42,574 bases of DNA from a virus. Lineage: Duplodnaviria; Heunggongvirae; Uroviricota; Caudoviricetes. The translations under genes and the position numbers were made by a program. Within the stretch, counting starts at the first letter, position 1, and each line of letters starts with the position of its first letter. The stretch covers positions 1 through 42,574 of IMG/VR virus record IMGVR_UViG_2675903468_000002; one strand, 5' to 3'. The notes under the pieces were generated by a model. The model saw only the letters and a program-made list of their open reading frames with translations, searched no databases and was not told the DNA's origin. Positions 2,606 through 34,933 of the stretch are shown here, in pieces.

Positions 2606-6007
<3,402 letters not shown>

Positions 6008-25576: not shown

Positions 25577-26104
25577 TTACCCTTTCACTTCTGAAAGGGA
25601 TTTTTTGCCAAACGTCACTTCATTCATTGACATAAGTATGCTGTCTTTAATGTATTCGCACACTTCATTAATTTTTGCGTTGGTATCCACATGCGAAAAT
25701 GTCCTGGCCTGATAACCATCAACCGAAATCGTCATGTTGTCGCCATCAAGTAACAGAATACTCACTGTAATATTCACACTTACAGACTGGCGGGGATCAT
25801 CATCAACAACCGTATATAAATTAAAAGTAACCCCATCCTGAAAATCTACCTGCAAATCCTCCGGTTTCTCACAACAACTATCATGAGAAAGATAAACATA
25901 GGGATGGGAGTTACCGTCAATATCCAGCCATCGTGGTTTCGGCAATGCCAGTGAGTCTTCATAGGTCTTGACCAGCCTTTTTGCCATATCCCGCAGTCGC
26001 TGGATGTACTCCTGTCTGGCCTCCTGAATTTCAGCCTGCTTTTCCCGAATGTCTGCATATGTGATCACAGTCTCAATTCTCCTGTATACAGAAAAATAAA
26101 CCAT
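25577..26104 (-). CDS. Hypothetical protein (function unknown)
   Basis: ORF whose upstream part (26105-26200) contains a terminator, so start set at ATG 26104; alternative GTG at 26068 has an AGGAGA RBS. Confidence 0.5.
   Translation of the reverse strand: MVYFSVYRRIETVITYADIREKQAEIQEARQEYIQRLRDMAKRLVKTYEDSLALPKPRWLDIDGNSHPYVYLSHDSCCEKPEDLQVDFQDGVTFNLYTVVDDDPRQSVSVNITVSILLLDGDNMTISVDGYQARTFSHVDTNAKINEVCEYIKDSILMSMNEVTFGKKSLSEVKG
25579..25606 (+). terminator. Strong plus-strand intrinsic terminator overlapping the 3' end of a minus-strand gene
   Basis: CCCTTTCA-CTTC-TGAAAGGG followed by ATTTTTTG on plus strand; no U-tract in the minus orientation. Confidence 0.5.
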
Positions 26105-26163
26105 AATAATAGCCAACCGGGAAAAGATGAAAAATGCCATAACAGAACAGGCATTGCGCACGG

Positions 26164-26191
26164 ATAAAAAAATGCCCGTCATGAGACGGGC
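26164..26191 (-). terminator. Intrinsic terminator (minus strand)
   Basis: GCCCGTC-TCAT-GACGGGC followed by ATTTTTTTATCC on minus strand. Confidence 0.6.
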
Positions 26192-26748
26192 CCAAAGCAT
26201 TCATCGTATAAGAATTAGACAGCGTTTAATTGTATGGTTACTACCAGAATGATTCGTCAGCCTGCAACGTAATTCTGACGAATCACAGACCCCGAAACAG
26301 GCAGCGACTCATTCTGATAAAAACCATCCGATGATACACAACGTTAACAATGTAAAAAACAGCACCGAAACTGTAATCAGTCAGATATTACAGAATGAAG
26401 AACGACAAAGGCGCTTGCAAAACCTGTTCTCCGCGAAACTCGCCAGTGCTGAAACGATATGCCTCATTTGTTTACCAGTGCGGGTAGCAGAAATTACCCT
26501 CACACATAAAATGCTGACTTCCGGAATCACACTGCTGACCGGTTATTACTGAATCAACAAACTGATCACCAGGAAGTCAGCACTGACCTTTCCGGTGGTA
26601 TTAACACCCTGTGAACACAAAACGACCACCTTTAGGTCGTCACAAATACTAACAATGATTGTGTGGGCATCAAAAATATATTTGGTGTTCAGTTTTAAAT
26701 ATGTGTATACATCTGTATCAGAAATATACAACTTATATCATCACTGAA

Positions 26749-27795
26749 TTAAAAATCTTTCGTTATTTCTCTGACCGTCTGATTAAAACGTTCCTCTTCC
26801 AGTTCCACGCCAATCGCCCTGCATCCCAGCGACAGTGCCGCTTTTATTGTCGACCCCGACCCCATAAAAAAATCTGCGACCAAATCGCCTGGACGGCTGC
26901 TGGCAGTAATTATCTGACGCAACATATCCGCCGGTTTTTCACAGGGATGCTTACCCGGATAAAACTGCACGGGCTTGTGCGTCCAGACATCCGTATAAGG
27001 AACGACAGCCGATACGGAAAAATAACGCCGCAGTGATTTGTATTCCTCCAGCAGGCTGGCATATTGCCGGTTCAGTTCGCTGTATGTGCTGACCAGCTGG
27101 TGGTGTGGCTGCTCCAGTTCACCGCGCTGGTGTTTTTCTGCCACCACACGTGCAAACAGCGCCTGCAGTTTACTGTAATCGGCCTCATTCGGTAACTGCC
27201 ACTGACTGGTACCAAACCAGTGCGAAGCCATGTTTTTCTTTCCGGTGGCTTCTGCTATCTGTTTTGACGTTATCCCCAGTGATTCGCGCGCATCACGAAA
27301 GTAAGAAATCAGCGGGGCCATGACATGCTGCTTAAGCTCGCGCCCCTTTGCTGCATAACCGTCACTTTTGGGCTGGTATGGCCCCTGATAATGTTCGGCA
27401 AACAGAATGCGCTCTGTTGCCGGGAAATACGCCCGCAGGCTTTCCTTGTTGCACCCATTCCAGCGTCCGGACGGCTTCGCCCAGATAATGTGGTTCAGCA
27501 CATTAAAGCGTTCACGCATCATGATTTCGATATCAGATGCCAGGCGATGACCACAGAACAGGTAGAGACTTCCGGCAGGTTTCAGTACCCGCCAGAACTG
27601 CGCCAGACACTGAGCCAGCCATTTCAGGTAATCATCGTCCCCCTTCCACTGGTTATCCCAGCCCTCGGGCTTCACTTTAAAGTATGGCGGGTCTGTGACT
27701 ATCAGATCGACAGAGTTTTCCGGTAAGGTCCGGATAAATTCCAGGCAATCAGCGTTGATTAACTCACAACTGGATATTTTTACAGTATTAGCCAT
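26749..27795 (-). CDS. DNA methyltransferase (N6-adenine or N4-cytosine, beta-class), apparently orphan
   Basis: 348 aa; motif IV DPPY (LIVTDPPYFKV) near the N-terminus and AdoMet motif I FxGxG (DFFMGSGST) near the C-terminus; no adjacent restriction endonuclease candidate. Confidence 0.85.
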   Translation of the reverse strand: MANTVKISSCELINADCLEFIRTLPENSVDLIVTDPPYFKVKPEGWDNQWKGDDDYLKWLAQCLAQFWRVLKPAGSLYLFCGHRLASDIEIMMRERFNVLNHIIWAKPSGRWNGCNKESLRAYFPATERILFAEHYQGPYQPKSDGYAAKGRELKQHVMAPLISYFRDARESLGITSKQIAEATGKKNMASHWFGTSQWQLPNEADYSKLQALFARVVAEKHQRGELEQPHHQLVSTYSELNRQYASLLEEYKSLRRYFSVSAVVPYTDVWTHKPVQFYPGKHPCEKPADMLRQIITASSRPGDLVADFFMGSGSTIKAALSLGCRAIGVELEEERFNQTVREITKDF

Positions 27796-27945
27796 AGATC
27801 AATAAGCTCTTCTCTGATAGGCTCATACCGCTTTTGCGCAAAGCAGATGGGCCTGAGGTTTGCTTGTGATCCCAACGCATGAGCAGATGGCTGGCAGGTG
27901 CCGCTAACACCCACCAGCCGCCCATTACCACAAATTAAAAAGCCT

Positions 27946-28143
27946 TCACTGAGGAAGGCGTCTGTAACAACCGAACTGATAATCTGCCAGACCCGCCATA
28001 ACAAGCTGGGTCAGTATTAACTGGCAGCGTTCGCGTGAAAGGTAAGTATTCTGCGCAATTTCCCCGACGGTCGCCGGTTCGGTGACGCTTAATTCATTAA
28101 ACACCACTCTGGCGGTTTCGGTCATATCCTGCTGTTTTAGCAT
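27946..28143 (-). CDS. Small putative DNA-binding protein (winged-helix-like), function unknown
   Basis: Internal start MLKQQDMTETARVVFNELSVTEPATVGEIAQNTYLSRERCQLILTQLVMAGLADYQ; 150 bp upstream of the methyltransferase on the same strand. Confidence 0.35.
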   Translation of the reverse strand: MLKQQDMTETARVVFNELSVTEPATVGEIAQNTYLSRERCQLILTQLVMAGLADYQFGCYRRLPQ

Positions 28144-28650
28144 GTCTTTTTCCCTTTTCCGGTTAACGTGACATACCAATAACTCTTGTCGAAAAAGCCA
28201 GCAAGCTGAAAGACCGGTATTCGTAACCACCAGCACGTTTAACGTCCTGTGCCGTTTTTCGGGTACAAAAAACAGCCCGACGGCGGTTTTAAGGAAGGAG
28301 TCGAAGCAACCACTCTTAACATCATAATTGAATTTTTACGTACGTAAACCACAAATACGCCACTCAAATGTTAATGCTCTATAACAAAACCAAACATGCG
28401 AATAACACATATTACACCAAATACATCATTGTTATTTTTCAATGAAAAATGAGTAAATAATGTATTTCATTAATTAAATTCCGCATTACACAAAAATATC
28501 GACAAATTACACCAACGCGCATAAATGAGATCTTGATCATATTATCAATCACTAAATTAAACTTGCCTCTTGAAATAACCACATTGATTAGATGAATATT
28601 TATCGCGCAGTGACATCATTTTTTAAAATAGTTCAAAAAAAGGGTTCGTG

Positions 28651-29760
28651 ATGAAAAAATTAACGGTGGCAATTTCTGCTGTGGCTGCATCAGTATCAGT
28701 ACTGATGGCGATGTCTGCTCAGGCAGCAGAGATTTATAATAAAGACAGCAACAAGTTGGATCTGTACGGAAAAGTTAATGCTAAGCACTACTTCTCCTCT
28801 AACGATGCAAATGATGGCGACACAACTTATGCTCGTCTGGGTTTCAAAGGCGAAACTCAGATCAACGATCAACTGACTGGTTTCGGTCAGTGGGAATATG
28901 AATTCAAAGGAAACCGTACTGAAGAACAGGGAGCAGCCAAAGATAAAACCCGTCTTGCATTTGCAGGGCTTAAATTCGGTGACTACGGCTCCGTCGATTA
29001 CGGTCGTAACTACGGTGTAGCATACGATATCGGTGCATGGACTGACGTTCTGCCAGAATTCGGTGGAGATACTTGGACCCAAACAGATGTATTCATGACT
29101 GGTCGCACCACTGGTGTTGCAACTTATCGTAACAACGACTTCTTTGGTCTGGTTGATGGTCTGAATTTTGCTGCACAGTACCAGGGTAAGAATAATCATG
29201 ATCGTAGTAGCTTAGATAACTACACCAAAGGCAATGGCGATGGTTTTGGTTTCTCTGCGACCTATGAATACGAAGGTTTCGGCATTGGTGCAACGTATGC
29301 GAAATCTGATCGTACCGACACTCAAGTCAAATTGGGTAAACTTCTCCCAGGAGTATTTGCTTCCGGCGAAAATGCAGAAGTCTGGGCTGCAGGTCTGAAA
29401 TACGACGCAAACAACGTTTATCTGGCAACAACCTATTCAGAAACCCAGAATATGACTAAATTCGCAGATTACTTTGTGGCTAATAAAGCACAAAACTTCG
29501 AAGCTGTTGCACAATATCAGTTCGATTTCGGTCTGCGTCCGTCTGTTGCTTATCTGCAATCAAAAGGTAAAGATCTTGGCATTTTTGGTGACCAAGATTT
29601 AGTCAAATATGTTGATGTTGGCGCAACTTATTATTTCAACAAAAATATGTCTACATTCGTTGATTACAAAATCAACCTGCTTGACAAAAATGACTTTACT
29701 AAAGCTCTTGGTGTAAACACTGACGATATCGTTGCTGTAGGTATGGTATACCAGTTCTAA
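28651..29760 (+). CDS. nmpC: Outer membrane porin, NmpC/Lc/OmpC family (phage-encoded)
   Basis: [25 protein letters not shown] signal peptide then [24 protein letters not shown]...ending VGMVYQF; trimeric-porin hallmarks; closely matches recalled DLP12 NmpC; opposite strand to Q and lysis genes as in DLP12. Confidence 0.95.
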
Positions 29761-34658: not shown

Positions 34659-34781
34659 GCTTTCCACGACCTTATTGGTGGTGAGACGTACAGGGGTGGA
34701 AATACCGGTCACCAAAGAACCCGGCCCAACCGAAGTTGGCCCTGCACGCCCCACCATAATTTGGGCGTAATGCTGCTCATG

Positions 34782-34808
34782 ACACAAAAAAACCGCAAGA
34801 GCGCGGTT
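34782..34808 (-). terminator. Intrinsic terminator downstream of the Lar-like gene
   Basis: Minus strand AACCGC-GCUCUU-GCGGUU followed by UUUUUUUGUG. Confidence 0.6.
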
Positions 34809-34933
34809 GTGCGCTTTGGTGAATTCCGGGTTTCCACGCCCGGCACCCGCTTTATAAGGTGCTGGAATAGTGTAACGTCCCGAAATTGCAGAATCAATAT
34901 GTTGGTTGCGGATCATTTTGTACCTACTCGCCG

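Follow-up and report, generated by a model that had tools for sequence, protein, structure and literature searches.

The tRNA genes ileZ-argN-argO of Sp5, a Stx2a prophage of the Sakai strain, and of 933W lie in the late operon between tR' and stx2AB, downstream of PR'. A methyltransferase gene, of which Sp5 keeps only a 3' remnant, precedes them, and cargo and lysis genes follow. In Sp5 a primary start site appears to drive these tRNAs in the lysogen (PMC7547250), and the Sp5 PR', which is the source of StxS, has been mapped by dRNA-seq and Term-seq (PMC7547250). The PR'-tR' 6S RNA of lambda and StxS are non-coding units that run from a promoter to a terminator on the late-gene strand, with read-through expected from Q. 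Q and its qut site are specific, co-inherited pairs. The late region of such prophages also encodes the Hfq-bound small RNAs AgvB, AsxR, PasA and PasC, which lie downstream of PR' near the TerB, DUF3927 and holin genes and have a terminator with a U-run. Finally, 3'ETS-leuZ of E. coli is reportedly an sRNA that derives from a tRNA spacer. The locus described here shares features with all of these, and below we argue that it belongs with the first.

The window is a stretch of 42,574 nucleotides from a viral record (IMGVR_UViG_2675903468_000002) and consists of a lambdoid prophage whose late genes lie on the minus strand. Read along that strand, the order is Q (127 aa; PF06530, E = 5.5e-52 in Pfam), an OmpC-like porin gene located on the opposite strand, a 65-aa TrmB-like ORF, a DNA methyltransferase gene (PF01555, E = 1e-42 in Pfam) that ends at 26749, the non-coding gap studied here, a 163-aa ORF (phrog_5091), and then TerB, DUF3927, two holins and a GH108 endolysin. 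A PADLOC search with two cargo proteins encoded downstream of the gap gave no defence-system match. Across the gap and its flanks the sequence matches the chromosome of E. coli EC11, a strain from cow dung, at 100% identity. The features of the region are listed in Table 1.

Table 1. Features in and around the gap, with positions in the window
Feature	Position	Strand	Details
Probable PR'	28267..28348	minus	TTTACG 28348-28343, 16-nt spacer, TATGAT 28326-28321, then GTTAAGAGTGGTTGC
Weakened hairpin and T-run of the PR' block	28286-28267	minus	
Module A	~26565-26760		A/T-rich block, promoter-like site and leader
A/T-rich block, possible UP-like element	26674..26748	minus	between the methyltransferase stop codon and the -35
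Sigma-70 promoter-like site	26646..26673	minus	TTGATG 26673-26668, 16-nt spacer, TAGTAT 26651-26646
Predicted transcription start	near 26640	minus	from the putative promoter 26646..26673
Leader stem-loop 1	26585..26638	minus	outer helix GACCU/AGGUC, inner helix GGUGGU/ACCACC (minimum-free-energy fold)
Leader stem-loop 2	26511..26583	minus	GUGCUGAC...GUCAGCAU
tRNA-Gly(UCC) remnant	26478..26505	minus	degenerate T arm and 3' acceptor strand (from alignment to tRNA-bearing relatives)
Branched middle domain	26352..26451	minus	closing 8-bp helix CAGCACUG/CGGUGCUG, then directly U6 (26359-26354)
Inner hairpin of the middle domain	26393-26371	minus	compensatory changes
Module B	~26162-26320		long hairpin, A/U-rich linker and terminator
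Long hairpin	26242..26319	minus	~22 bp, nearly perfect, UAUCAGAAUGAGUCG...CGAAUCAUUCUGGUA
A/U-rich linker	26192..26241	minus	unpaired in the consensus fold
Motif (C)GAUGAAUG	26206-26198	minus	in the A/U-rich linker, just ahead of the terminator
Intrinsic terminator T1	26166..26191	minus	GCCCGUC-UCAU-GACGGGC 26191-26174, A, then U7 26172-26166
Second terminator	25542-25521		

There is no credible ORF in the gap. The four gap ORFs, of 49-73 aa, have no Pfam match, and alignments show that they are broken in the relatives by indels that are not multiples of three; protein coding was rejected on these grounds. An earlier reading made from the sequence only had likewise found no convincing ORF between the methyltransferase gene and the next gene, and in this it was correct, but the extent that it gave, about 550 bp, was too short. 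Because the 163-aa product of the downstream ORF spans positions 2-161 of the 164-position phrog_5091 profile, the start of this ORF is most likely the GTG at 26068, which is preceded by an AGGAGA Shine-Dalgarno sequence. The annotated start, which overlaps the terminator, is therefore probably wrong, and the non-coding stretch runs from 26069 to 26748.

Partial or full matches to the gap were found in 54 of the 5426 complete E. coli genomes searched, and 14 of these are full-length relatives (70.7-74.7% identity across at least 97% of the query). At the aligned position the full-length relatives have a tRNA-Gly(UCC) gene. Contigs from IMG/VR add further variants of the gap, most of them with tRNA-Gly and one (L028) with tRNA-Arg(UCU) behind the same leader. 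In the window about 45 nt of tRNA-Gly(UCC) have been deleted, comprising the 5' acceptor strand, the D arm and the anticodon arm, and only a remnant of the gene is left (Table 1). ARAGORN finds no tRNA gene in the window, and the Rfam tRNA model RF00005 is absent from the gap even at E values up to 10; at the same position in the relatives this model scores 65, 52, 47 and 36 bits. The tRNA-less form also occurs in three IMG/VR contigs (L026, L016 and L027), which are nearly identical to the window and to each other in this region. Judging from the falling scores, the tRNA is decaying in several lineages and the window is the end state.

Beyond these relatives, the gap has no matches in the INPHARED collection of phage GenBank records in either near or distant mode, and a 22-mer from the A/T-rich block has none in the GTDB species-representative genomes. 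A scan of the whole window with Rfam at the gathering threshold gave no credible match in the gap. When the gap was scanned at E values up to 10, weak matches to RprA, AgvB, RT-5 and a snoRNA appeared, all far below threshold and all resting on the terminator or on A/T-rich sequence. Rfam on nine related loci gave tRNAs and sok only.

The gap is a mosaic of two modules, A and B. Wherever a relative has the tRNA, module A immediately precedes it, also in prophages without the methyltransferase gene. Module B can also stand on its own, with module A absent, ahead of holin genes or TerB. The position of the cassette, on the late-gene strand with PR' or the methyltransferase gene upstream and cargo or lysis genes downstream, is shared by the window and 10 related loci. 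In E2348/69 PP5 and in EC416, tRNA-Ile and tRNA-Arg are found right behind the methyltransferase gene, and in Sp5 the methyltransferase remnant is followed directly by ileZ-argN-argO. On the strength of this shared gene order, the gap is the 'tRNA slot' of a Stx-phage-like late region.

The slot in the late operon is thus the same as that of the Sp5 and 933W tRNA genes, downstream of a homologous PR', and the content differs. Sp5 has three intact tRNAs behind a short leader, just a few tens of bases long, whereas the gap has a leader of about 130 nt, no tRNA, and a trailer of about 300 nt; both of its flanks are structured and it ends in a dedicated strong terminator. There is no sequence similarity between the gap and the Sp5 cassette, and Sakai is not among the 54 genomes listed by distant BLAST. 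With moderate confidence, we consider the gap to be a terminator-bounded tRNA moron cassette that has its own sigma-70 promoter, sits within a Q-antiterminated late operon and has had its tRNA deleted. The order of such a cassette would be an A/T-rich block, a sigma-70 promoter, a leader of about 115 nt (130 nt here), the tRNA, a trailer of about 300 nt and a terminator.

The promoter-like site upstream of the leader agrees with the sigma-70 consensus at 8 of 12 positions and falls below the threshold of the promoter scan. Sites as good as this occur at 1.55 per kb per strand in the window, so the consensus match is no better than chance and is not evidence by itself. The window lineage has TGT before the -10, which is an extended -10 motif. 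Both hexamers, the GT before and the T after the -10, and the 16-nt spacing are kept in 19 homologous variants, with the exception of one -35 base (TTGATA, in the L010/L019/L023 type). The lineages differ at 8 of the 16 spacer bases and downstream of the -10, with the spacing unchanged. A conserved -35/-10 island in diverged sequence is the footprint that would be expected of a working promoter, and points to one indirectly. We infer the promoter from this footprint and not from the strength of its consensus match. The A/T-rich block is nearly invariant across the cassette-bearing homologues, including loci without a methyltransferase gene, and its position and composition make it a possible UP element.

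Just past the putative start there is a small terminator-like hairpin with a U-rich tail (26641-26621), which is found in the window lineage only. It was rejected as an early terminator or pause site; it is not conserved, and the relatives pair those bases differently.

The stem of T1 has seven pairs, six of them G-C, and closes a 4-nt loop. It is kept in all 13 of the homologues compared, with one compensatory pair. Terminator-like sites are enriched in the surrounding region, with 10 found between 25400 and 28700 as against 3.4 +/- 1.7 in shuffled sequences. Where relatives have no cargo genes, about 165 nt separate T1 from the holin genes downstream, and, as in the window, a second terminator comes after T1. 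The plus strand of the gap has no G+C-rich terminator and only a weak A/T-rich hairpin candidate (26664-26691), on which basis an antisense or convergent sRNA from that strand was rejected.

The predicted RNA is highly structured. The 476 nt from 26640 to 26165 fold with -167.1 kcal/mol, compared with -130.5 +/- 5.5 for shuffled sequences (z = -6.65). The plus strand of the same 476 nt reaches only -137.5 kcal/mol; the minus-strand fold therefore contains many G-U pairs, which marks the minus strand as the RNA strand. The consensus fold of the leader (nine sequences) has two stem-loop domains with five pairs changed on both sides. Two pairs in the inner helix of stem-loop 1 are changed on both sides in four of the nine sequences (GGUGG/CCACC vs GACGG/CCGUC). 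For the outer helix strict covariation was rejected, as the alignment shows a one-base register shift in the window with the structure kept. Stem-loop 2 is lengthened by a lineage-specific insertion of 35 nt (26567-26533), and at the base of its helix a G-C pair has become A-U, a compensated change that is specific to the window lineage. In the relatives this hairpin stops 5 nt short of the tRNA.

The closing helix of the branched middle domain pairs in every sequence and is almost invariant. Together with the U6 that follows it, this domain may serve the tRNA transcript as a first, weak terminator, and the U-run might end some transcripts early. In the consensus fold of the trailer (13 distinct homologues) an unpaired linker joins a 22-pair hairpin to the terminator. 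Over this entire structure 97.8% of cells pair, with two-sided changes at 6 of its 32 pairs; in the 22-bp hairpin, where three of these six lie, the paired share is 96.9%. This hairpin has the duplex length of an RNase III-type site (about 20 bp or more) and is a candidate for processing of that type. For both leader and trailer, none of 500 column shuffles and none of the slid-partner controls reaches the covariation score; with so few and such closely related sequences (nine for the leader and 13 for the trailer), shared descent may account for part of the counts. In the linker, the motif (C)GAUGAAUG is kept in every variant type but OkiPb/L006, including prophages without the following ORF. 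A separate promoter for the trailer was rejected, as both candidates (TTTACA-17-TATCAG and ATTACA-17-TACATT) are weak and indels disrupt them from one lineage to another.

The sequence-only reading had pointed to a sigma-70 promoter on the minus strand, to the strong terminator that we call T1, and to a short terminated unit between them which might be a small RNA, and had suggested folding the region for conserved structure. The terminator is there and conserved, and the fold is conserved as well, with compensatory changes in both leader and trailer. The promoter has the hexamers and spacing described, at a chance-level consensus match which conservation lifts above chance. The layout from promoter to terminator also holds, as does the possibility of a stable RNA, but the unit is not a short leader; its predicted length is about 474 nt.

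These structures could also belong to a passive spacer. The gap would then have no working promoter and would be transcribed only within the Q-antiterminated transcript from PR'; its hairpins would be processing sites, for example for RNase III at the 22-bp stem, and its terminators would be insulators that keep polymerase which has not been antiterminated from the lysis genes. We regard this as a serious possibility, but an unlikely one. A chance-level promoter match would be expected of such a spacer, tandem terminators do stand ahead of the lysis cassette, and the trailer module is also found directly upstream of holin genes without the promoter-leader-tRNA module and without a conserved promoter; the conservation of the -35/-10 island at a fixed spacing amid diverged sequence, however, argues for a promoter that is used, as does the fact that the promoter-leader module travels with the tRNA into unrelated contexts. 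Additionally, the tRNAs of phage Sp5 appear to be driven by their own primary start site (PMC7547250).

The structure is kept, with compensatory changes, in a lineage that has no tRNA, and the tRNA-less form is present in the three IMG/VR contigs as well as in the window. This would fit a cassette that was kept after tRNA loss as one or more sRNA genes, with a fragment of the leader or trailer that acts by base pairing or as a sponge. The analogy of tRNA-spacer sRNAs, and of the prophage Pas and anti-sRNA families, would make the best candidate the 3' piece, made up of the A/U-rich linker with GAUGAAUG and the U7 terminator. The arrangement of this end, single-stranded A/U sequence followed by a terminator with its U-run, is the one usual for Hfq-type RNAs, and Hfq-bound sRNAs are known to concentrate in the late region downstream of PR' (PMC4104026; bioRxiv 10.64898/2026.05.13.724894). 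The four tRNA-less copies are nearly identical, however, which suggests recent spread rather than long retention, and the compensatory changes may predate the deletion. We therefore judge such sRNA genes to be rather improbable.

Comparison with the known RNAs bears on the same question. In the relatives, as in 3'ETS-leuZ, a structured RNA lies downstream of the tRNA in the same transcript and ends at the intrinsic terminator of the operon, and processing of the tRNA by RNase P and RNase E would free the leader and the trailer as separate RNAs. The window differs in that it has no tRNA to direct such processing. The gap shares with AgvB, AsxR, PasA and PasC its location downstream of PR', near the TerB, DUF3927 and holin genes, and a terminator with a U-run. 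However, AsxR, AgvB (by its conserved position) and PasA are 51-85 nt long and antisense to the late genes, whereas the gap unit is sense and about 474 nt long. AgvB and its homologue AsxR, which occupies the same conserved position, are recognized as RNAs of 51-60 nt that are convergent or antisense to the late transcript, and the gap unit differs from them on both counts. No Rfam family reaches its threshold in the gap. Of the AgvB/AsxR models (RF02702, RF02703), that of AgvB reaches 14.6 bits where its gathering score is 56 (E = 6.9), mostly from the terminator, and AsxR does not appear among the Rfam matches at E values up to 10.

The leader contains one stretch of 24 nt (26598-26575) that is identical to PasA at 21 positions. 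Of 1000 shuffles, 3 do as well, and 2 of 1000 do so against the C5 homologue; the match is confined to this stretch, and we treat it as a lead only. Recurring GUGCUG/CAGCAC helices, together with this 24-mer, are a hint that the unit may be connected with the network of Pas sRNAs. PasC gives no signal against the gap, with 362 (EC11) and 331 (C5) of 1000 shuffles scoring as high. Both PasA and PasC are located near TerB and holin genes, and PasA is in a different spacer and antisense to the late genes. That the tRNA-less cassette is a working regulatory RNA gene, with a leader fragment, or a 3' trailer fragment made up of the 22-bp hairpin, the linker with GAUGAAUG and the U7 terminator, serving as an Hfq-associated sRNA or sponge in the lysogen, is less likely still. 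If it were true, the spacers of phage tRNAs would be a source of new prophage sRNAs.

The late promoter is probably not in the gap but in an Sp5/DLP12-type block (28348-28321), 1.6 kb upstream of it. The whole block, from 28348 to 28267, is homologous to the PR' region of the Sakai prophage Sp5, which comes right behind Q there, and to the nmpC-essD spacer of DLP12 in E. coli K-12. It lies upstream of the 65-aa ORF and the methyltransferase gene, and the porin gene is located between it and the PF06530 Q gene. DLP12 is arranged alike, with a 127-aa QuuD-type Q, the porin gene nmpC on the opposite strand and then a PR'-type block. Ahead of the 65-aa ORF and behind the Q-position gene, all relatives share a terminator together with a leader about 130 nt long; farther upstream than this the sequence varies with the Q-position gene. 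There is no similarity between the gap and the PR' block of Sp5 or DLP12. Module A co-occurs with the 127-aa PF06530 Q, with a 229-aa 'antitermination protein Q' and with DUF1133, and at one locus there is no annotated Q-type gene within the 5.2 kb examined. Module A is thus found behind at least three Q-position genes and is therefore unlike a Q-specific qut site.

The proposal made from the sequence only, that the gap holds a relocated PR' with its qut site and yields a short terminated RNA like lambda 6S which Q would extend into the lysis genes, drew on a promoter-like site with a terminator downstream on the late-gene strand and on the hairpin with a U-rich tail behind the predicted start in the window lineage, but it is very improbable given that a PR' homologue common to Sp5 and DLP12 and associated with the same PF06530 Q family lies elsewhere, that the gap module occurs with different Q-position genes (once with none annotated nearby) and precedes a tRNA in the relatives, that the hairpin is not conserved, and that the unit is about 474 nt long. 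That proposal had named a late promoter immediately downstream of Q as the alternative, and in substance this is what the PR' block is, with the porin gene in between. The unit of the lambda 6S/StxS type is therefore present in the window as a separate element, and the unit in the gap is not tied to Q and is built around the position of a tRNA.

We return to the tRNA cassette as the preferred explanation. In the lysogen, host RNA polymerase would start near 26640 and stop at T1 (about 26167) to give an RNA of about 474 nt. This RNA would contain the leader hairpins, a remnant hairpin, the branched middle domain and the 22-bp hairpin, and its tail would be A/U-rich and include the terminator. 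T1 and the second terminator would shield the downstream cargo and lysis genes from transcription of the cassette. After induction, Q-modified polymerase from PR' would cross the whole cassette. With the tRNA lost, the cassette may simply be decaying and not be kept for any function.

Late operons that contain a tRNA unit with a promoter of its own are already known, and the gap is a fairly ordinary prophage feature, a degenerate example of that arrangement. The map of the late region of this prophage is corrected by these results, with the late promoter probably placed in the block described above and the gap identified by its gene order as the tRNA slot. In addition, the relatives of the gap define a small and rare family of phage tRNA cassettes, present in 54 of the 5426 complete E. 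coli genomes, with flanks that are unusually long, structured and conserved and are covered by no Rfam model. Within this family the tRNA is seen at every stage of decay, down to complete loss. If the flanks are stable RNAs, they would be a new case of prophage regulatory RNAs that arise from tRNA spacers; if they are not, the locus would represent routine erosion of a phage tRNA cassette.

The late promoter PR' probably lies in a stretch upstream of the methyltransferase gene (see the table), because this stretch is homologous both to the PR' of Sakai Sp5 (the StxS promoter) and to the nmpC-essD spacer of DLP12. The hairpin 3' of PR' is weakened in the window prophage (GGCTG here, GCGGG in relatives) and its DLP12 counterpart is 9 nt longer. 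This suggests that early termination after PR' may be leakier in the window prophage. The OmpC-like porin gene lies on the strand opposite to the late genes, the same placement as that of nmpC in DLP12, and PR' is on its far side, so late transcription need not traverse it. Between PR' and the methyltransferase gene there is a 65-aa ORF that is conserved in all relatives, and a terminator-like hairpin (27959-27942) overlaps its stop codon.

Features in and around the late region and in comparison loci
Feature	Coordinates	Strand	Remarks
C4 antisense RNA and isrK Hfq-binding RNA	window 34674-34862	minus	Rfam
OmpC-like porin gene	window 28648-29760	plus	between Q and PR'
Late promoter PR' (probable)	window 28267-28348	minus	by homology
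65-aa winged-helix-like ORF	window 27942-28143	minus	weak TrmB match; phrog_331
GUGCUG/CAGCAC-type arm sites	window 26575-26598, 26443-26451, 26360-26367; comparison locus L003 5416-5500
Cargo ORF downstream of gap	window 25577-26200	minus	RefSeq 201 aa; longest ORF 207 aa; indicated product 163 aa
Terminator-like hairpin	window 25580-25599	plus	faces minus-strand terminator 25542-25521
Second terminator	window 25542-25521	minus	counterpart of terminator directly 3' of T1 in relatives without cargo
tRNA-Arg(UCU)	L028 (IMG/VR) about 3852-3924		behind same promoter-leader module as window
Methyltransferase 3' remnant and sigma-70 match before ileZ	L045 (Sakai Sp5) about 2105-2225

Both the RefSeq ORF and the longest ORF downstream of the gap overrun T1, the intrinsic terminator of the cassette. 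A phrog_5091 match and an AGGAGA-GTG start indicate instead that the product starts at 26068. This protein was without a match in Pfam or PADLOC. Its gene is flanked by T1 on one side and by the second terminator and the opposing hairpin on the other, and there is a promoter-like site, TTTTCA-16-TATTAT, at 26133-26106 on the minus strand. The locus has the look of an independent cargo gene that was placed between a pair of terminators.

Outside the late region, Rfam matches to C4 antisense RNA (83.6 bits) and, immediately adjoining it, isrK (67 bits) point to a c4-style immunity or anti-repressor region of the P1/P7 type in a prophage with a lambdoid late region.

In Sakai Sp5 only the last ~100 nt remain of the methyltransferase gene homologous to that of the window. 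After this remnant, just upstream of ileZ, there is a good sigma-70 match (TTGCAG-17-TATTAT). Sy et al. (PMC7547250) reported a tRNA promoter, and this match probably corresponds to it. Among related cassettes, tRNA-Arg(UCU) replaces tRNA-Gly(UCC) in one contig, and the tRNA-Gly copies (loci including L005, L006 and L002) score from 65 down to 36 bits, the weakest, in L005, being missed by ARAGORN. Judging from these loci, the cassette exchanges and erodes its tRNA while the flanks are kept.

Finally, both leader stem-loop 2 and the closing helix of the middle domain have helix arms of the GUGCUG/CAGCAC type. The terminator arms and seed of the prophage sRNA PasA (GCCAGCAC/GUGCUGGC) are identical to the leader arms found in relatives. 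The cassette RNAs and PasA could share common building blocks, or have the potential to pair.
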